64,000 nucleotides of DNA from Candidatus Dormiibacterota bacterium (GTDB lineage Bacteria; Chloroflexota; Dormibacteria; Aeolococcales; Aeolococcaceae). A program made the translations under genes and the position numbers. The stretch is from positions 1,159,397 to 1,223,396 of the forward strand of contig OY970355.1 in assembly GCA_963718525.1 (NCBI GenBank), read 5' to 3'. Under the pieces are notes generated by a model that did no database searches, was not told where the DNA came from, and worked only from the letters and a program-made list of their open reading frames with translations. Below, one piece after another: positions 898-9,487 of this stretch; position 1 is the first letter of the stretch; each line of letters opens with the position of its first letter.

Positions 898-1743
898 CTA
901 CATGGAGGAGCCCGACCGCCCGTCGATGTAGACGGGATGATCGGGAGGCTTGCCCTCCAGCCAGTAGGCATCGAGGCGCTCGTCGGTCCAGCCCCGCGCA
1001 CGCAGGAAGGGCTCGTCGAGGATCTGCTGCCCCGTGAGCGACGGTGGCTCGGTGCTGACGATCTCCATCATCGCGTCGCAGAGGATGTCGGGCGAGCGCC
1101 ACTGGCTGCGGTCGCCAAGGCCCCAGTTGATGCTCGCAAGGCTCTCGATGATCGTCACCGGCCAGAGGGAGTTGCCGGCGATGCCGTCGGCGGCATGCTC
1201 CGCAGCGATGCCGATGGCGAGCCGTGTCATCCCCATCTTGGTGGTCATGTAGGCGACGTGACCGGGGCTGGGCTGCGTGCTGATCGGCGGAGAGCAATTG
1301 ATGATGTGGCCCCAATGCTGCTCGACCATGTGGGGCAGGGCGTAGTACGCGCACAGGTACGCGGCACGAACGTTGATCTCCCACATCAGGTCATAGCGCT
1401 TTGGCGGCGTCTGCAAGATCGACTGCCACCAGAGGGCGCCTGCATTGTTGATGAGGATGTCGAGCCGGCCGAAGCGCTCGATCGTCGCCTCGACCATTGC
1501 CTTGACCTCGTCCTCGTGGCGCACGTCGACACGCACCGCGAGCGCGGATCCCCCGGCAGCCTCGACCTCCGCCGCCACCGTGTGAATGCTTCCGGGAAGC
1601 TTGTCGGTGCCGCTCTCGGACTTGCCGGTGATCACGACGGAGGCCCCCTCGCGCGCTAGGCGGAGCGACATCGCCCGGCCGATCCCGCAACTCGATCCCG
1701 TGACCAACGCCACGCGGCCGTCGAGTGGACGTGGGGCACTCAC
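898..1743 (-). CDS. Short-chain dehydrogenase/reductase (SDR family oxidoreductase)
   Basis: Translation of ORF 898..2022 (-) contains GRVALVTGSSCGIGRAMSLRL (Rossmann TGxxxGIG), NNAG and a YxxxK catalytic region (YMTTK). The likely start is GTG at 1743..1741, overlapping the stop of the upstream HD gene (GTGA). Confidence 0.8.
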   Translation of the reverse strand: MSAPRPLDGRVALVTGSSCGIGRAMSLRLAREGASVVITGKSESGTDKLPGSIHTVAAEVEAAGGSALAVRVDVRHEDEVKAMVEATIERFGRLDILINNAGALWWQSILQTPPKRYDLMWEINVRAAYLCAYYALPHMVEQHWGHIINCSPPISTQPSPGHVAYMTTKMGMTRLAIGIAAEHAADGIAGNSLWPVTIIESLASINWGLGDRSQWRSPDILCDAMMEIVSTEPPSLTGQQILDEPFLRARGWTDERLDAYWLEGKPPDHPVYIDGRSGSSM

Positions 1744-2354
1744 GCGACGAAGTTCCTGATCGCGTCCACCAGCTCCGCGAGCTGGTCGGTCGGCGGGCCG
1801 GGCATACGTCGCTGGAGGATGCTCAACACGCTCGTGTAGTACCAGAGTTGCTCGTGCGGATCCTCGACGGTGAAGCGCTGCCACACTGCCGCGCCTTCGG
1901 TACGAAGGTCGGCAAGGATCGAACCCGCGTTGTGGATCTTGTCGCACGCCGACACCAGGAGCGCATCGCGATCGGCGTCGCGCTCGAGGTGGTCGAGATA
2001 TCGCTGTTTGCGCTCCTTCCATGGTGGTTTCGGCTCGCCCGGGACGGCGACGACGTCACTGCACGTCAGGACGATCCGCGCCACACGTGGGCCGAAGTCC
2101 TCCTCGAGGCGCCGAAGCATCGCGGCCCCGTCCTTCGAGTCCTCCACGGTGTCGTGAAGCAGCGCCGCGATTGCGACATCCTCATCCGCACCGTTCTCGA
2201 GCGCCAGCGCGCACACGGCCATGACGTGCGCCATGTATGGGATGCCGGTCTTCTTTCGCAGCTGGCGGCCGTGCACCTCCCACGCGACCACGAATGCCGA
2301 GGTGAACCGCTCGGTCAGCCGCGGGGCGGTGTTCGACTCCGGCACGCCGGTCAT
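1740..2354 (-). CDS. HD-domain phosphohydrolase, RelA/SpoT-type (candidate small alarmone hydrolase)
   Basis: C-terminal 204 aa of ORF 1740..3059 (-): ...HGRQLRKKTGIPYMAHVMAVCALALENGADEDVAIAALLHDTVEDS... This matches the SpoT/Mesh1 HD motif (H...HD...D). The ATG is at 2354..2352. The stop overlaps the SDR start (GTGA). Confidence 0.7.
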   Translation of the reverse strand: MTGVPESNTAPRLTERFTSAFVVAWEVHGRQLRKKTGIPYMAHVMAVCALALENGADEDVAIAALLHDTVEDSKDGAAMLRRLEEDFGPRVARIVLTCSDVVAVPGEPKPPWKERKQRYLDHLERDADRDALLVSACDKIHNAGSILADLRTEGAAVWQRFTVEDPHEQLWYYTSVLSILQRRMPGPPTDQLAELVDAIRNFVA

Positions 2355-2552
2355 TGTCCGTTGCGGCGGGCAGGTCATGAGGGTGCATGCGGTCTGGAGC
2401 CAGAATGGGGCGTGCGCTTCTACCTCGGCCATCGCCTCCCCGGAGGATTCTGGGCCGGCCTCTCGACCTACGGGAGGCGACCGCACCGCGCCGTCCGGCA
2501 GGCCGCGCACGCGACCGGTGGCATCGGATGCGTCGGTTTCGTCGTCCTGGTC

Positions 2553-2906
2553 GTGGTGATCGCGCTGGGGATCGCCTACTGGTACGTCAGCGTCCCGGTC
2601 CTGGTGCTCACGGCCATCGCCGTCGGTGTCACCGTGCACCGGCAGCATGTGCATCGGACGCGGCCGGCGCGCGTTGTGTCCGACACTCCCGTGCCTCCGC
2701 CGGTCCCGGTGGCACTGGCGGCGCGCGGGCAGCGCACCGCCAAGCCTCGCCCGCTGACCATGCCAGCGGACACCTTCAAGATCGGCTCGCTGGTCCACCT
2801 CGAGAAAGAGGGGAACCGCACGACGTACTTCGTCGACCACGGGCGGACCCCGGACGAGATCGTGCTCAAACGCGTGACGACGACGCCGATCGAGATGGAT
2901 GCCTGA
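2553..2906 (+). CDS. Small hypothetical membrane-anchored protein. The start is uncertain; alternatives are GTG 2553 or GTG 2412.
   Basis: 3' part of ORF 1725..2906 (+), beyond the antisense HD gene: hydrophobic helix VVIALGIAYWYVSVPVLVLTAIAVGVTV, then a His/Arg-rich segment and a soluble tail ...KIGSLVHLEKEGNRTTYFVDHGRTPDEIVLKRV. The stop TGA (2904..2906) overlaps the ATG (2899) of the downstream ATPase (ATGCCTGA), suggesting translational coupling. Confidence 0.4.
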   Translation: MVIALGIAYWYVSVPVLVLTAIAVGVTVHRQHVHRTRPARVVSDTPVPPPVPVALAARGQRTAKPRPLTMPADTFKIGSLVHLEKEGNRTTYFVDHGRTPDEIVLKRVTTTPIEMDA

Positions 2907-5334
2907 CGCCGCCCTGCTCGGTCTCGTGGTCGACCGTATCGCAGTCCGGCCGCCGGCGGACCCGGGGGGGCGCCTCGTGCTCGCGGCGTTCGGCGGGCCG
3001 GCGGCGGTTGACGCCGCCCTCCATGCCGAGTTCGAGCCGGCATCGGCGGCTGGTCCCAACGGAGCGACGGCACGGCCGCGCTCCGCCGTCTACCTCACGG
3101 ACATCGAGGTGGAGGGCTTCCGGGGCGTCGGACCGACGACCAGGCTGGCGATCGACCCGGGCCCCGGGCTCACCCTGGTGGTGGGCCGCAACGGGTCGGG
3201 GAAGTCCTCATTCTCCGAGGCTCTCGAGATGGTGTTGCTCGGCACCAACAAGCGGTGGGAGCAGCGGGTCAAGGTGTGGCGCGACGGGTGGCAAAACCTC
3301 CACCACCGCCACACGAGGGTCGTGGCCCGGTTCGCGGTCGATGGGCGCAAGCAGCCGCTCGAGGTCGCACGTGTCTGGAAGGACGGTGACGGCTTGGAAG
3401 GATCGACGCTGTTCGTCGACGGCAAGCCGGCCGACCTGGATGGGCTGGGCTGGGCGCACCCGCTCACCGGGTACCCGCCGCTGCTCTCCCACAACGAACT
3501 CGAACATGCCCTCGATCGCGAGCAGTCGAAGCTGTACGACGCGCTCGCCGGGATTCTCGGCCTCGGAGACCTCGCCGAAGCCCAGCAGGTGCTGCAGAAA
3601 GCGCGCCTTGCTCGCGAGCGCGAGGTGAAAGACGCACGCGAGGCACTGCCGGCGTTGCGCGCGTTGCTCGAAAGAACCTCGGACGAACGCGCGGCGCTGG
3701 TTCGCTCGGCGCTCGCTGCCAAAGTGTGGGATCTCGACGCGGTCTCGAGCACCGTCGGCGGCGACGCCGAGAGTGACGAGCGCAGCGTGCTCCGTAAGCT
3801 GCGCGATCTTGCAGGTCTGCCGGTGCTGGATCGCGACAGGCTCAACGCGGCGATCGCCGGCCTGCGTGATGCGCATGCGGCCACTGAGCGGCTGCGGGGC
3901 ACCGATGCCGGAAGGGCACATGAGCTGGCGGCGCTCCTCGAGCAGGCACTCGCCGTGCACGCCCACGCCGAGGACGAGCGGTGCCCGGTGTGTGGCACCG
4001 AGGGCGTGCTGACCTACCGGTGGCGCGTGCAGGCGCGCGACCAGGTCGTCGCGCTCCGGGTCGAGGCGGAGGCCCTTCGCACCTCCCGCCGCATGCTTGA
4101 GGATGCGATCCGCCAGGCTCGGCAGCTGATCACCGCACCGCTGAAGGCGTTGCGTGACGGCGCCGGCGCCGGTATCGATATCCACCCGGTGATCGCGCTC
4201 TGGGAGCGATGGGCCGAAGTTTCTGCCGATGATGACGCTATCGCGCTGGCCAGCAACCTCGAGACGCACGGTCCACCGCTTCTCGTGTCCGTCGCCGATC
4301 TGCGTCGGGCAGCCGCAGCCGAGCTCGAGCGGTTGGAGCGAGCATGGCGACCGGCCGCCGACGCGATTGCGTTGTGGCTGCCGCTGGGTCGTCGGGCGCA
4401 CGAGGCGGAACGGGAGATCAACGGGCTCAAGGATGCCGAGCGATGGCTCCGAGATGCGCACGACGAGCTGCGTGATGAACGCTTCCGTCCCATCGCAAGT
4501 GCGGTCCAGGAGAACTGGACGGCGCTGCGCCAGGACAGCAACGTCTCGCTCGGTGAATTACGTCTGCTCGGCGCGCAGACCCAGCGCCGACTCTCGCTCG
4601 ACGTCAAGGTCGATGGTGAGGATGGGTCCGCCCTCGGGGTCATGAGTCAGGGCGAGCTCAACTGCCTCGCGCTGTCGCTGTTCCTCCCGCGCGCGTCGAT
4701 GCCCGAGTCGCCGTTTCGGTTCGTCGTGATCGACGACCCGGTGCAGGCGATGGATCCGGCGAAGGTGGCCGGCTTGGCGACGGTGCTTGCGCGTGCGGCC
4801 AGGGAGCGTCAGGTCATCGTCCTCACGCACGACACCCGTCTCGCGGATGCCATGCGCGCGCTGGATATTGCGGCCACGGTGGTCGAGGTGGTGCGGCGCG
4901 AGCAGTCGGTCGTTGAGCTGCGCCGGATACAGGATCCCGTACAGCGCTACATCGACGATGCGCTTGCGGTTGCGATGAGCAGGGACGTCCCCGTTGAGGC
5001 ATTGCGGGTGATCCCCGGCTTCTGCAGGCTCGCGCTCGAGGCCGCGGCGGCACTCGCGGCGACGCGGCGCCTGCTGCGTCAGGGCACCGCGTACGCGGAG
5101 GTGCAGAACGTGTTGGCGAAGCCGACCACGCTGAACATGTGGCTGGCACTGGCGCTGTTGAACGATCCGGAGCGAAGCGGCGACGTGATCGGCTTCCTGC
5201 AGAAGCAGCATCCCTGGGCGGTCGATGCCGTCAGGGAGTGCAACCGCGGAACGCACAGCGGCAAGGTCTATGGCGATATGAAGGAGTTCATCCGCAGTGT
5301 CGAGCGGCTGACCAAGAAGATGCTCGAGCGTTGA
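2899..5334 (+). CDS. Rad50/SbcC-like SMC-family ABC ATPase with a central coiled coil and a CxxC zinc hook
   Basis: 811-aa ORF. Walker A is GRNGSGKSS (aa ~97–105). The ABC signature-like motif is LSQGELNCLALSLF. Walker B is FRFVVIDDPVQAMD, followed by an H-loop VIVLTHDTRL near the C-terminus. About 400 aa of Ala/Arg/Glu/Leu-rich predicted coiled coil lie between the head halves, with CPVCG (nt ~3982–3996, aa ~362) near the midpoint. The start is ATG 2899 (coupled to the upstream ORF). An alternative start is GTG 2977, closer to the conserved N-terminal β-strand (YLTDIEVEGFRGV). Confidence 0.8.
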   Translation: MPDAALLGLVVDRIAVRPPADPGGRLVLAAFGGPAAVDAALHAEFEPASAAGPNGATARPRSAVYLTDIEVEGFRGVGPTTRLAIDPGPGLTLVVGRNGSGKSSFSEALEMVLLGTNKRWEQRVKVWRDGWQNLHHRHTRVVARFAVDGRKQPLEVARVWKDGDGLEGSTLFVDGKPADLDGLGWAHPLTGYPPLLSHNELEHALDREQSKLYDALAGILGLGDLAEAQQVLQKARLAREREVKDAREALPALRALLERTSDERAALVRSALAAKVWDLDAVSSTVGGDAESDERSVLRKLRDLAGLPVLDRDRLNAAIAGLRDAHAATERLRGTDAGRAHELAALLEQALAVHAHAEDERCPVCGTEGVLTYRWRVQARDQVVALRVEAEALRTSRRMLEDAIRQARQLITAPLKALRDGAGAGIDIHPVIALWERWAEVSADDDAIALASNLETHGPPLLVSVADLRRAAAAELERLERAWRPAADAIALWLPLGRRAHEAEREINGLKDAERWLRDAHDELRDERFRPIASAVQENWTALRQDSNVSLGELRLLGAQTQRRLSLDVKVDGEDGSALGVMSQGELNCLALSLFLPRASMPESPFRFVVIDDPVQAMDPAKVAGLATVLARAARERQVIVLTHDTRLADAMRALDIAATVVEVVRREQSVVELRRIQDPVQRYIDDALAVAMSRDVPVEALRVIPGFCRLALEAAAALAATRRLLRQGTAYAEVQNVLAKPTTLNMWLALALLNDPERSGDVIGFLQKQHPWAVDAVRECNRGTHSGKVYGDMKEFIRSVERLTKKMLER

Positions 5335-5342
5335 AGCCTGAT

Positions 5343-5732
5343 ATGAACACCGTGGTGGACGCACATGCGCTGGTTTCGGCGGCGCGTGACCTCATCTGCG
5401 ACGACGATTCGACGACAGCCGGGCTCTGGCCCCGCGCCGCGGCGCTACTCGCGCGCCAGGGACTCGAGCTTGCCATGGCGGGGCTCTGGGAGGTAACGGC
5501 TCCCGGGCTGGAGCGAACCTCGACGCGATGTCAGTTGCTCTGTGTCGGCGACATGCTCAACGATCGCGAGCTCGGCGGCCGCGCGACGTTGACGTGGCGC
5601 TCACTCTCCAACGCCTGCCACCATCGCATCTACGAGCTGCCACCCACCGCGAGCGAGCTCAACATGGCCCTCGAGACGGTGTGGGACCTTGCGGAGTCAG
5701 TGGAGCGCGTGCGCGGGAGGATCCAGACGTGA
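5343..5732 (+). CDS. Hypothetical 129-aa protein (Cys/His-containing), third gene of the ATPase module
   Basis: In-frame ATG at 5343, 8 nt after the ATPase stop (5334). Sequence MNTVVDAHALVSAARDLICDDD...RCQLLCVGDMLNDRELGG...SNACHHRIYELPP... No recognisable family. Confidence 0.5.
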   Translation: MNTVVDAHALVSAARDLICDDDSTTAGLWPRAAALLARQGLELAMAGLWEVTAPGLERTSTRCQLLCVGDMLNDRELGGRATLTWRSLSNACHHRIYELPPTASELNMALETVWDLAESVERVRGRIQT

Positions 5733-5802
5733 GGCGCGGTCAACCTGTTGCCATGGTTCGACGCCGCGGTCTCGTCGTGCTCGTTTCCGGGACCCTCACC
5801 CC

Positions 5803-5852
5803 TTAGCACTCCCCCCCGCGCCCCGCTAGCAGTCAGGCATCGCGAGTGCTAA
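5803..5852. promoter_or_regulatory. CIRCE-type HrcA operator upstream of groEL. A 9-N9-9 element CTAGCAGTC-N9-GAGTGCTAA lies at 5826..5852. An extra perfect left half-site TTAGCACTC lies at 5803..5811.
   Basis: Direct reading: TTAGCACTC (5803–5811) ... CTAGCAGTC (5826–5834) aggcatcgc GAGTGCTAA (5844–5852). CIRCE consensus is TTAGCACTC-N9-GAGTGCTAA. It lies 46 nt upstream of the groEL ATG, which is preceded by an aggagg RBS. Confidence 0.7.
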
Positions 5853-5897
5853 ACTGAGCCCTGGAACCCAGGCTAGAGGATCAAACCAGGAGGAACC

Positions 5898-7508
5898 ATG
5901 GCCAAACAACTGCTATTCGACGTCGAGGCTCGGGCCCATCTCAAACGAGGGGTCGATCGGGTCGCGGACGCCGTGAAGATCACCATCGGCCCCAAGGGCC
6001 GGAACGTCGTGCTGGACAAGAAGTTCGGGTCGCCGACCATCACCAACGACGGAGTCACGATCGCCAAGGAGATCGAGCTCGAGGAGCCCTTCGAGAACAT
6101 GGGCGCCCAGCTGGTCAAGGAAGTGGCGAGCAAGACGAACGACATCGCTGGTGACGGGACCACCACCGCCACCGTGCTTGCCCAGGCCCTGATCGCAGCC
6201 GGCCTGCAGAACGTGGCCGCCGGCGCCAACCCCATCCAGCTCAAGAAGGGCATCGAGCTCGGCGTTGAGGCGATCGTCAAGGCGATCAAGGAGCAGTCGA
6301 TCCCGATCTCCGAGCGCGAGAAGATCGCTCAGGTTGCGTCGATCTCCGCGGCTGACCCCACCATCGGCGAGACAGTCGCCGATGCGATGGAGAAGGTCGG
6401 CAAGGATGGCGTCATCACCGTCGAGGAGTCGAAGGGCCTCGAGACCGAACTCGAGCTCGTCGAGGGCATGCAGTTCGACAAGGGGTACATCTCCGCGTAC
6501 ATGGTCACCAATGCCCAGCGCATGGAGGCCGTCCTCGAAGATCCGTACATCCTCATCACTGACAAGAAGATCTCGGCGATCGCCGACCTGCTCCCGATCC
6601 TCGAGAAGGTGGTCCAGAGCGGCAAGCCGCTGCTGATCATCGCCGAGGACGTCGAGGGCGAGGCGCTCGCAACTCTCATCGTCAACAAGCTCCGCGGCAC
6701 CTTCAACGCGGTTGCGGTCAAAGCCCCGGGCTTCGGTGATCGCCGCAAGGCGATGCTGCAGGACATCGCGATCCTGACCGGTGGCCAGGTGATCAGTGAG
6801 GAAGTGGGCCTCAAGCTCGATTCCGCGCAGCTCAGCTCGCTCGGCCGCGCCCGCAGCGTGACTGTCACCAAGGACGACACCACGCTCGTCGAGGGCAACG
6901 GCAGTAAGGACGCGATCAAGGGCCGCATCGAGCAGATCAAGGCCGAGATCGAGAAGTCCACGAGCGACTGGGACAAGGAAAAGCTCCAGGAGCGTCTTGC
7001 CAAGCTCAGCGGCGGCGTCGCCGTGATCAAGGTCGGCGCGCCGACCGAGACCGAGCTCAAGGAGAAGAAGCACCGCATGGAGGACGCCGTGTCCGCCACG
7101 CGCGCCGCTGTCGAAGAGGGCATCGTGCCTGGTGGTGGCGTCGTGCTCGTGAACGCGATCCCCGCGCTCGACACTGTGAAGGCCGAGGGCGATGTGCTCA
7201 CCGGCGTGAACATCCTCCGTCGCGCACTGGAGGAGCCCCTCCGCCAGATCGCGCAGAACGCCGGCATGGAAGGCTCCGTCGTGGTCGACAAGGTGAAGTC
7301 GCTCCCCAAGGGGCAGGGCTTCGACGCGGCCAAGGGCGAGTACGTCGACATGGTCAAGGCCGGCATCATCGACCCGACCAAGGTCACCCGTTCGGCGGTG
7401 CAGAACGCGGCATCGATCGCCGCGCTGCTGCTCACCACCGAGGCGCTGATCACCGACATTCCCGAGAAGAAGGGAGCACCGGCGGGTCCGCCGATGCCGG
7501 AGTACTGA
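5898..7508 (+). CDS. groEL: Chaperonin GroEL (Cpn60), apparently stand-alone groEL2-type with no adjacent groES
   Basis: 536-aa [42 protein letters not shown]...[15 protein letters not shown]... AGGAGG RBS 6 nt upstream. Confidence 0.97.
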
Positions 7509-7535
7509 TCGGCAACTGATTCGATTCCTGAAAGG

Positions 7536-7572
7536 GCGGTCCGGGATTCTTCCCGGGCCGCTCTCTTCTTTT
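7536..7572 (+). terminator. Rho-independent terminator after groEL
   Basis: gcggtccggg-attctt-cccgggccgc forms a 10-bp stem with one G·U pair, followed by a tctcttctttt T-rich tract. Confidence 0.6.
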
Positions 7573-7686
7573 GTCCGTATATCCGCGATGAGTTGATCAA
7601 CGATCGGCTACAACCCGGCGACGGCCGGACGCGCCTCGATCGACCCTGCGTAGATTCGACCTTCGAACCCACTCAGAGGTACTTCA

Positions 7687-8229
7687 ATGACCGACGCGCT
7701 GCCAGACGATTCGTTCGTGGAGTCAATGGGCTCCGGGTTGCTGCATCTCACCGGGATCGGGAGCCGCCTCGCGAAGCGCGAGACTGACGAGGAGCAACTG
7801 GACGCGCTCGACGGCAAGCTGATCACGGATCTCGGCCGGGAGTTTCACGATCGCGGCGACGAAGCCGCTCCAGGCCTCGACCTTGCGTCCGTGGCACAGG
7901 TGGATCCCGAATTCACACCGGACGCGTTCCTGCTCATCGCGAGAGATGCGTTTCGCGTCCTCCAGGACGCGCACACCGAGGGAGCACCGGCCCTCGACGC
8001 GGACATAGCTTCGGCAGAGGTCACGGCGGTCTCGATGGAGGGCGGGCGAGAGCGAGCTGTCGTGCGTTTCGGTATCACGGGCACCGCGGCGGTCACTCAG
8101 GATTGGACCTTCGAGCGCGACCCGTCGGTCGACACGACCACCGAGGACGAGGATCACGAGGTTGCCGACGGCGGATGGTTGGTCGCCCACCGCGGGTGGC
8201 GCCTCACAGGGATCGCAGCCGCCGCCTGA
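7687..8229 (+). CDS. Hypothetical acidic protein
   Basis: 180-aa ORF with RBS agagg upstream. No recognisable motifs. Confidence 0.5.
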   Translation: MTDALPDDSFVESMGSGLLHLTGIGSRLAKRETDEEQLDALDGKLITDLGREFHDRGDEAAPGLDLASVAQVDPEFTPDAFLLIARDAFRVLQDAHTEGAPALDADIASAEVTAVSMEGGRERAVVRFGITGTAAVTQDWTFERDPSVDTTTEDEDHEVADGGWLVAHRGWRLTGIAAAA

Positions 8230-8269
8230 AAAGCGATTGTGTCCATCATGGGCGCCGCGTGAGACGCCC

Positions 8270-9487
8270 ATGCTGAGCAATACCCGACTACCTGGCCCGT
8301 TCTCGCGCCTGCCCATTGCCTGGGTCATCGCGTTGGTCGTGTTCGTCCTGGCTGGCCTCAGCGCGCTCACCAAGAGCGGCGGTCAGCAGGCGCTGCTCCT
8401 GGCCGCCCTCGGTGTGATCCTCGTCCTTCGCGGAGCGACGGTCTTCTACCAGCGCCGGCCGATCGCGGGCCCGCCCCCGATCGAGCCGTCCTCCGAATCA
8501 CCCGCCCCTCCACGCGTTGTTGGAGCTCGGTCACCGTCAGCCCCAGTCTCGATCGCGACCGTCCCCGAAGTCCCCCAGACGGTGATCGAGGCGCGAGATC
8601 TCGCCAAGCGATACGGGCAGATCGTCGCGGTCGACGGAGTCAGTTTCTCGGTCGAGAGCGGCGAGATCTTTGCACTGCTCGGCCCCAACGGTGCGGGGAA
8701 GTCAACAACGCTCGAGATGCTCGAGGGGCTCCGGGACATCGATAGCGGCACCGCGCTGGTGCTGGGAACCGACATCAAGTCAAACGCCGTGGCCGTGAAA
8801 CGGCGCATCGGCGTCCAACTCCAGGCGACAGCGCTTCCGAGCTTCACGACCGTCCGAGAGTCGATCGACCTGTTCCGCGCCTTCTATGACCACACGCGCG
8901 ATACCGCAGATCTCCTCGTGGAGTTTGACCTGGTTGCGCAGGCGAAGCAGGTCACCACAAAGCTCAGCGGGGGCCAACAGCAGCGGCTCAGCATCGCACT
9001 CGCCATGGTCAATGATCCCGACGTGGTGTTTCTCGACGAGCCGACCACCGGCCTCGATCCCCAGGCGCGAATCTCGTTGTGGGGCTTCATCGAACGTTTC
9101 CGGAGCCGTGGCAAGACGGTGATGCTCACCACGCACTACATGGAGGAGGCGGAGCGGCTGTGCGATCGCGTCGCGGTCATGGACCAGGGGCACATCGTGG
9201 CGCTCGATACGCCGGACCGCCTGGTGACATTGCACGCACCGGGCACGACGATCTGCTTCACGAGTCCGCACCCAGACGCGGAAGGACTGCGTGCGTTGAC
9301 CGGTGTCGAATCGATTGAGGTCGACGCTGGAACAGTGCGCATCGTCACACGGACTCCCGAGACCGTCCTCGCGCAGTTGCTCCACCCTGACAGCCCGGAG
9401 TCGCACGGGCTTAGCAACCTGCGCGTGGAACGGGGCACGCTCGAAGACGTGTTCATCGCTCTGACCGGGCGCGACCTGCGCTCATGA
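8270..9487 (+). CDS. ABC transporter ATP-binding protein with an unusual N-terminal transmembrane and Pro-rich extension
   Basis: In-frame ATG 8270 after the upstream stop. N-terminal helices (LPIAWVIALVVFVLAGLSAL, ALLLAALGVILVLRG). Then Walker A GPNGAGKST, signature LSGGQQQRL, Walker B VVFLDEPTTGLD and an H-loop TTHYMEEAE. Confidence 0.85.
   Translation: MLSNTRLPGPFSRLPIAWVIALVVFVLAGLSALTKSGGQQALLLAALGVILVLRGATVFYQRRPIAGPPPIEPSSESPAPPRVVGARSPSAPVSIATVPEVPQTVIEARDLAKRYGQIVAVDGVSFSVESGEIFALLGPNGAGKSTTLEMLEGLRDIDSGTALVLGTDIKSNAVAVKRRIGVQLQATALPSFTTVRESIDLFRAFYDHTRDTADLLVEFDLVAQAKQVTTKLSGGQQQRLSIALAMVNDPDVVFLDEPTTGLDPQARISLWGFIERFRSRGKTVMLTTHYMEEAERLCDRVAVMDQGHIVALDTPDRLVTLHAPGTTICFTSPHPDAEGLRALTGVESIEVDAGTVRIVTRTPETVLAQLLHPDSPESHGLSNLRVERGTLEDVFIALTGRDLRS

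Follow-up and report, generated by a model that had tools for sequence, protein, structure and literature searches.

Three features define RloC, namely, ATP-binding cassette (ABC) motifs like those of PrrC, an insert with a coiled coil and zinc hook of the Rad50 kind, and an Arg-X3-Glu-X36-52-His anticodon-nuclease triad at the C-terminus (PMC2610378), and its nuclease domain is classed as HEPN (PMC3710099). Acting as a single polypeptide, RloC removes the wobble nucleotide from tRNA under the control of a DNA-dependent ATPase switch (PMC2610378, PMC3458546); DNA ends stimulate the ATPase, and mutation of the zinc hook leads to constitutive activity (PMC3458546). Here we describe a pair of genes in a 64,000-nucleotide (nt) stretch of contig OY970355.1 from Candidatus Dormiibacterota bacterium (hereafter, the window, to which coordinates refer unless another locus is named). 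One of these genes encodes an 811-amino-acid (aa) ABC ATPase with a Rad50-like zinc hook and a C-terminal HEPN-like domain, and the other one encodes a 129-aa protein that probably is a standalone paralog of that domain. On balance, we read this pair as a two-gene, RloC-like ATPase-nuclease system.

Lamassu systems need a separate LmuA effector and, usually, LmuC, the gene for which precedes that for LmuB. In LmuB, CxxC hooks are combined with folded coiled coils, LmuC is small, and the C-terminal domain of LmuA is a bundle of 5-6 helices; Rad50/SbcC, LmuB, RloC and DndD have been grouped as 'CxxC SMCs' (bioRxiv 10.1101/2025.03.14.643221; PMC12663957). In PrrC and in the ABC-HEPN fusions of the APECO1_4465 and ERFG_01251 families, an ABC ATPase controls a C-terminal HEPN RNase, and these genes are linked to restriction-modification (R-M) systems (PMC3710099).

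Architecture of the ATPase and its resemblance to RloC

The ATPase gene occupies 2899..5334 (on the + strand, as are all features below unless indicated otherwise), an assignment that is backed by the open reading frame (ORF) listing, a public gene call, Pfam and homologs. The public gene calls for GCA_049283715.1 include the same three genes, encoding 164 aa (an upstream membrane protein), 811 aa (the ATPase) and 129 aa (the partner), and the third-position GC content of 0.83-0.88 supports the coding status of all three ORFs. When one genome per GTDB species was scanned, 80 ATPase loci were identified in Dormibacterota, Chloroflexota, Acidobacteriota, Gemmatimonadota, Actinomycetota (including Streptomyces, Nocardia, Micromonospora, Lentzea and Pseudonocardia), Myxococcota and Pseudomonadota; outside Dormibacterota, the full-length identity to the ATPase is 35-45%. 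More than 100 full-length homologs of about 810 aa show 52-98% identity, under source names such as 'AAA family ATPase [Candidatus Dormibacterota]'.

An earlier note on this DNA described a Rad50/SMC-type ABC ATPase with a zinc hook, and this description held: the ORF, the motifs and the gene junctions are all present at the coordinates checked, and the CxxC motif is conserved in all 75 family members compared. In these 75 members, which represent many phyla, Walker A, C362-P363-x-C365, SQGE, DDP..Q..D and H644 are 100% conserved, much more than chance would produce. Walker A (GRNGSGKSS, 3184..3210), with K102 and both glycines kept in 75/75, is followed by a coiled-coil insert consisting of several broken helices (residues ~209-543, 3523..4527), as delineated from the AlphaFold2 (AF2) secondary structure and Foldseek. 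The apex of the insert is occupied by the CPVC zinc hook (C362 and C365; 3982..3993), in which C362, P363 and C365 are kept in 75/75; the extended motif CPVCG spans residues 362-366 (3982..3996). The ABC C-lobe (4639..4833, with all motifs 100% conserved) encompasses the VMSQGE signature, contained in VMSQGELNCLALSL (4639..4680), the Walker B/D-loop VVIDDPVQAMD, contained in FRFVVIDDPVQAMD (4714..4755), and the H-loop LTHD (4822..4833), after which 167 residues remain. The signature is thus present as reported, except that it reads MSQGE rather than LSQGE. The residue following the Walker B Asp is another Asp, not the usual catalytic Glu, in 75/75 members (VIDDP; residues 611-613, 4729..4737), which suggests a slow, switch-like ATPase. 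VIDDP is found in genuine RloCs as well.

The ABC head is preceded by a helical N-terminal extension of ~60 aa (2899..3078; AF2 helices at residues 4-16, 23-30 and 34-41). This extension is kept in Dormibacterota and in many other homologs, and is absent or diverged in several homologs from Streptomyces and Nocardia. The AF2 model of the 811-aa protein (predicted local distance difference test (pLDDT) score, 78.6) includes the head, a broken coiled coil and an all-helical C-terminal domain, with CPVC located at the turn between the ascending and descending helices. The Foldseek matches for this model are SMC, Rad50 and JetC heads with coiled coils, and the Pfam matches of the protein are the generic ABC/SMC head families SMC_N, AAA_21 and AAA_23.

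The earlier note recorded an odd C-terminus and unrecognizable partners and did not consider the RloC architecture; as detailed here and below, the C-terminal domain appears to be HEPN-like and the conserved partner its probable paralog. Modeled alone, the C-terminal domain (residues 668-811, 4900..5331) reaches a pLDDT of 88 and a predicted template modeling score (pTM) of 0.83, and shows the four-helix up-down arrangement of the HEPN fold. In a separate list of matches for this domain, HepN toxin, Csm6, LsoA, Las1, MtlR, HI0074, AbiA and HepS appear below the top entries. A Foldseek search of the PDB returned nothing significant (best E 0.9), although the top of its list is crowded with HEPN toxins. 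The assignment of a HEPN fold is moderately well supported. In the family alignment, R710 and E714 (R710-x3-E714, 5026..5040) are invariant, and H786 is kept in 72/75 members. When the segment R779-x6-H786 (5233..5256) was compared with the Rx4-6H motif of HEPN domains, position 779 was found to be R or K in 53/75 members, that is, a loose R/K-x6-H motif.

The C-terminal domain has no family match in Pfam, NCBIfam, PADLOC (at E 10) or PHROGs, and a profile search among the PDB sequences yielded nothing useful. Among 1.84 billion representatives, the profile of the domain matched 857 clusters at 50% identity, including 557 at E<=1e-10. The best 150 of these matches are the ATPase family itself, with the domain forming the C-terminal part of proteins of ~805-840 aa or of shorter, fragment-like ones, and include no remote architectures.

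For the comparison with RloC, we used as the reference the genuine 746-aa RloC from plasmid 1 of Shewanella sp. ANA-3 (ortholog #60 of Table S1, PMC2610378), whose neighbors are an IS200 transposase gene and a type I R-M locus, and aligned 11 genuine plasmid RloCs to produce a profile for hhalign. The motifs of the aligned RloCs are GxNGxGKsT, CPFCQ, LSEGE, ViDDPisSL, LTHn, mR.I.E.yf and a later SH. The ATPase family matches this profile with 93.9% probability (E 1.5e-7), in an alignment that starts in the descending coiled coil, covers the ABC C-lobe and continues into the C-terminal domain, where R710/E714 fall onto R651/E655 of RloC, in register; the Walker A region aligns separately (89%).

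The two families share the domain order and size, namely, an ABC head with 100% conserved motifs, a coiled coil with long helices flanking a central CxxC hook (CPVC here, 75/75), the C-lobe, and a helical R-x3-E...H domain of ~150 aa. Also shared are the unusual Walker B/D-loop (VIDDPVQAMD here vs VIDDPISSLD in RloC) and the occasional linkage to type I R-M genes. The hook is different, CPVC here, which is the Rad50 form of the hook, as opposed to CPFC in RloC. Further differences include the longer Glu-to-His spacing detailed below, the extra N-terminal extension of ~60 aa, the taxonomic range, which here covers Dormibacterota, Actinomycetota, Acidobacteriota and others, and the obligate, probably paralogous small partner, whereas RloC has been described as a single-gene system. 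With PrrC, the common features are the ABC ATPase, the C-terminal HEPN-type domain and the R-M linkage; unlike the protein described here, PrrC, which is embedded in an hsd locus, lacks a coiled-coil/zinc-hook insert, and the PrrC model of PADLOC gives a score of just 15 bits, confined to the Walker B region.

The partner protein and the two-gene unit

The partner gene (5343..5732, 129 aa) starts after a gap of 8 nt downstream of the ATPase stop codon; its assignment as a probable standalone paralog of the C-terminal domain draws on its occurrence across the loci, hhalign comparisons and gene fusions. Using the 129-aa protein as the tblastn query, we detected a homolog immediately 3' of the ATPase in 73 loci, and a hidden Markov model (HMM) added six, so that the small gene is present in 79 of the 79 loci with downstream DNA, from at least six phyla. 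In most loci, the start of the small gene overlaps the ATPase stop by 4 nt. The single-chain organization of RloC is accordingly not seen in this family. All-against-all clustering of the ORFs flanking the 80 loci identified no other gene in common beyond genus-level synteny. Homologs of the upstream membrane ORF (2412..2906) are limited to three close Dormibacterota loci (L001, L003 and L004), and in L004, this ORF lies beyond the neighboring HD gene, not adjacent to the ATPase. Because the small gene is always downstream, the upstream ORF is confined to close relatives and nothing else is conserved, the conserved unit consists of two genes, not of the three that the earlier note had combined into a module; of the two small flanking ORFs, only the downstream one is conserved across the family.

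The small protein has no match in Pfam, PADLOC (at E 10), NCBIfam or PHROGs. Its invariant or nearly invariant residues across the family are R31, R38 and E42 (5433..5468), W85, L88 and H93 (5619..5621); H93 is conserved at 100%, R38 at 99%, E42 at 96%, and A40, S89, Y97 and P101 at >=90%. There is no conserved Arg ahead of the invariant H93. The description of this product as a Cys/His protein does not extend to the family: of the Cys and His residues, H93 alone is invariant, whereas C92 is present in 50-80% of the homologs, and C63 and C67 are invariant in the Dormibacterota homologs only. A zinc-binding Cys/His protein was considered and ruled out because the Cys residues vary across the family.

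The relationship between the small protein and the C-terminal domain was assessed with diverse alignments of 333 C-terminal domains and 189 small proteins. In four hhalign settings, the two profiles match with 73-79% probability (E 4e-6 to 2e-5), in a co-linear alignment of 108-115 columns in which R710/E714 fall onto R38/E42, and H786 onto H93. The score of about 30 obtained with unshuffled columns (34-36 in other runs) compares with a maximum of 13.5 in 30 column shuffles. When the small protein was compared with the profile of the whole ATPase, residues 680-809 were the sole credible match. Reciprocal HMM cross-hits are weak and always point to one and the same pair of helices in the C-terminal domain. 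Judged from these profile comparisons, the small protein is a probable, although not proven, paralog of the C-terminal domain.

Fusions of the two proteins also occur. In Lentzea sokolovensis (6003..8768 of locus L068), the ATPase and the small protein form a single ORF of 922 aa, and in two metagenomic cluster representatives (P0264 and P0297), the C-terminal domain is fused in frame to the small protein. Each of these in-frame fusions could be a natural one or a sequencing artefact; if real, they amount to Rosetta-stone evidence that the two proteins physically interact.

Genomic context, predicted function and alternative readings

Outside Dormibacterota, the pair is found in the company of genes implicated in defense. 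HsdM-type N6-methyltransferases are encoded <=6 kilobases (kb) away in about 15 of the 80 loci; in Streptomyces, GmrSD is located near the pair together with HsdM, and in Micromonospora, a DEAD/ResIII helicase. A Myxococcota locus includes a WYL/WCX regulator upstream and Cas_GSU0053 downstream, and in an Acidobacteriota locus, the pair is flanked by an insertion sequence (IS) integrase. On the Streptomyces plasmid pM92 (locus L081), the pair, annotated as 'AAA family ATPase' and 'hypothetical protein', adjoins NB-ARC/TPR (STAND) genes and a UvrD-like helicase. A scan of viral contigs found no relatives of the pair. These neighbors are typical of defense islands, from which we infer that a defense role is the best reading. 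Of the two roles that the earlier note offered, defense or DNA-end processing, the former is favored by the R-M, GmrSD, WYL/cas and NB-ARC genes and the plasmid; the latter is not, given that there is no DNase and that, besides the ATPase, the one catalytic module predicted is RNase-like.

In a Streptomyces subgroup (L057, L067, L069, L073 and L081; in L081, on plasmid pM92, 11803..15360), the pair is followed by a conserved UvrD-like helicase of ~1180 aa and, in L057, L067, L069 and L073, is preceded by N6-adenine methyltransferase genes. The pair, the helicase and, where present, the methyltransferases may form a larger composite system.

By analogy with the biochemistry of RloC (PMC3458546) and the structures of Lamassu, the pair most likely would function as an anti-phage suicide switch, not as a DNA-repair enzyme. 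Under this scenario, the ATPase would dimerize via its heads and zinc hook and survey DNA, probably, for ends or for aberrant DNA of phages or plasmids; binding or hydrolysis of ATP, dependent on DNA, would then trigger a conformational change of the heads, coiled coil and hook that licenses the HEPN module. The module itself is envisaged as a heterodimer in which the C-terminal domain and the small protein jointly provide a composite, metal-independent RNase site that would cut tRNA or other RNA, so that translation is halted and the infection is aborted. A heterodimeric nuclease is favored because the active sites of HEPN proteins are formed at the interface of a dimer, the R, E and H residues are retained in the small protein, and in-frame fusions occur.

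Going further, and tentatively, the pair could represent a distinct, widespread defense family in which a Rad50-like zinc-hook ATPase gates an obligate heterodimeric HEPN RNase. Such a family, with about 850 clusters at 50% identity and without a name in Pfam, NCBIfam or PADLOC, could be an evolutionary link between the single-chain RloC and the multi-subunit Lamassu, while, unusually, being kept at one chromosomal site as a Dormibacterota lineage diversified. If the RloC-like reading of the pair is right, a sizeable unannotated family, the members of which currently go under the database names 'AAA family ATPase' and 'hypothetical protein', would join the few zinc-hook SMC-like immune sensors, the Rad50-derived LmuB and RloC. 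It would provide a natural experiment in the control of HEPN nucleases, with a domain in cis and a paralog in trans as compared to the single chain of RloC, and, for the uncultured Dormibacterota, one of the rare predictions of an immunity function. The pair, found beside R-M genes and on a plasmid in Streptomyces, Nocardia and Micromonospora, is a testable candidate defense system for these genera. This would not be a new category of biology because RloC and PrrC already exemplify an RNase gated by a DNA-sensing ATPase.

Several observations weigh against the interpretation of the pair as an RloC-like nuclease system. The RNase function, the DNA sensing and the heterodimer are all features that we infer. 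The Shewanella RloC matches the Pfam family AAA_13 over positions 1-713 of 713 with 594.9 bits, whereas the 811-aa protein scores 31.6 bits, under the cut-off of 36, and covers only 80 positions of the profile (493-573); therefore, by the curated Pfam criterion, it is not a member of the RloC family. The C-terminal domain alone matches the RloC nuclease domain in the same register, but not significantly (7% probability, E 0.005), and the profile of the small protein bears no resemblance to RloC. In the C-terminal domain, 71 residues separate the Glu from the His, more than the 36-52 of RloC (the spacing in the small protein is 50), and the canonical HEPN Arg of the Rx4-6H motif is only semi-conserved across the family. 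The paralogy signal is lost, that is, becomes non-significant, when hhalign is run with shallow alignments that include only Dormibacterota, and PADLOC covers neither the C-terminal domain nor the small protein.

The setting in the window is likewise atypical of a defense system: the pair is surrounded by housekeeping genes (PEPCK, an aminotransferase, SDR, an HD_4 hydrolase, groEL and an ABC transporter), and there is conserved synteny, with the order SDR-HD-ATPase-small gene-groEL kept in Dormibacterota relatives at 65-80% ATPase identity. The GC content of the window is high, about 0.63-0.72, and is not anomalous. Because of this normal composition and the gene order kept in diverged relatives, the evidence points to vertical inheritance of the pair in the Dormibacterota lineage with no sign of recent insertion, contrary to the earlier idea that it was inserted between the HD gene and groEL.

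The main alternative to a composite heterodimer is that the small protein is an antitoxin-like decoy that caps the dimer face of the C-terminal HEPN domain until it is released by the ATPase, whereupon two C-terminal domains homodimerize into the active RNase. HEPN nucleases are commonly restrained by a partner from the same operon (PMC3710099), tight translational coupling would ensure matched stoichiometry, and, given that RloC works as a single chain, an extra subunit could be regulatory. Nevertheless, we regard this version as doubtful: the small protein keeps the R-x3-E...H residues at the 96-100% conservation given above, which would be needless in a pure decoy, and the in-frame fusions are more in line with a permanent partner than with an inhibitor that is released.

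Much less likely still is a Lamassu-type arrangement, in which an LmuB-like DNA-end sensor would be combined with the C-terminal domain and the small protein as adaptors without catalytic activity that correspond to the LmuA C-terminal domain and LmuC, respectively, and the effector would be encoded elsewhere or lost. The Lamassu-like link proposed in the earlier note is borne out to the extent that, in the PADLOC run, the top match of the ATPase is the LmuB model PDLC03859 (E 1.4e-22), albeit a partial one, over residues 213-653 only; other LmuB models match short head segments, and the next matches, mad3, HEC-01A and PDC-S06, are all confined to the ATPase. The resemblance extends to the CxxC SMC-like ATPase, the coiled coil of which is short and kinked, the small accessory protein alongside, the helical bundle at the LmuA C-terminus and the presumed logic of a DNA-end sensor controlling a toxic effector. 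Here, however, the ATPase carries an effector-like domain, fused to its C-terminus, and no LmuA-like effector gene, or any conserved third gene, accompanies the pair in the 80 loci; even at E 10, the LmuA and LmuC models of PADLOC hit neither the C-terminal domain nor the small protein. The latter appears to be a paralog of the C-terminal domain rather than a helix-turn-helix-like LmuC, the gene order is reversed, with LmuC preceding LmuB in Lamassu, and the invariant R, E and H residues, along with the HEPN-like fold, argue for catalysis.

We consider least probable that, in Dormibacterota, the pair is a housekeeping genome-maintenance or stress factor, either an SbcC/Rad50-like protein operating without SbcD or an RNA-processing factor. 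This would be compatible with the neighborhood of PEPCK, SDR, the HD_4 hydrolase and groEL with its CIRCE operator, the synteny with diverged relatives, and the annotation of some homologs as 'Nuclease SbcCD subunit C' or with the GO term 'double-strand break repair'; Rad50/SbcC indeed have an ABC head that is likewise interrupted by a coiled coil bearing a CPVC hook, and, among solved structures, SMC and Rad50 heads are the closest. The coiled coil, however, is much shorter than in Rad50/SbcC, the NCBIfam Rad50 model yields 23 bits against a cut-off of 700, and the SMC and RecF models are also far below their cut-offs, in agreement with the view that this is not an ordinary SbcC. As the earlier note also held, no Mre11/SbcD partner is nearby: the genes called up to 8 kb away on each side include no Metallophos hit, and a crude scan for calcineurin motifs in six frames of the whole window found none. 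The patchy distribution across phyla, with plasmid, IS-adjacent and defense-gene settings, and the conserved nuclease-type triad with a probably paralogous partner are unlike SbcC. An ordinary SbcC with a displaced SbcD was ruled out by the low Rad50/SMC scores, the HEPN-like C-terminus and the probably paralogous partner. The two-gene, RloC-like ATPase-nuclease system remains the reading that we prefer.

Other features of the locus

The upstream membrane ORF (2412..2906, 164 aa), which is coupled to the ATPase in this genome and lies outside the conserved module, is supported as a gene by a third-position GC of 0.88 and the public gene call. Its TGA stop codon is located within ATGCCTGA, and it overlaps the ATPase start by 8 nt. 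The protein contains a hydrophobic stretch of ~40 residues (residues ~36-77) and so probably spans the membrane with two transmembrane segments rather than the one assigned previously; it has no family match, with only a weak, non-significant hit to PspM. A scan of 2200..5950 for promoters and terminators found none.

The HD_4 gene, encoding a RelA/SpoT-type hydrolase-like protein (1740..2345, - strand), is divergent from the membrane ORF, with ~65 bp between the two. An antisense ORF of 439 aa (1740..3059) extends past the HD gene and, in that part, is not coding-like but a high-GC artefact. Upstream of groEL (5898..7508), a CIRCE-type (HrcA) operator, CTAGCAGTC-N9-GAGTGCTAA, is located at 5826..5852, with 2 mismatches to the consensus and 0.01 such sites expected by chance; an additional, perfect CIRCE half-site, TTAGCACTC, is present at 5803..5811.

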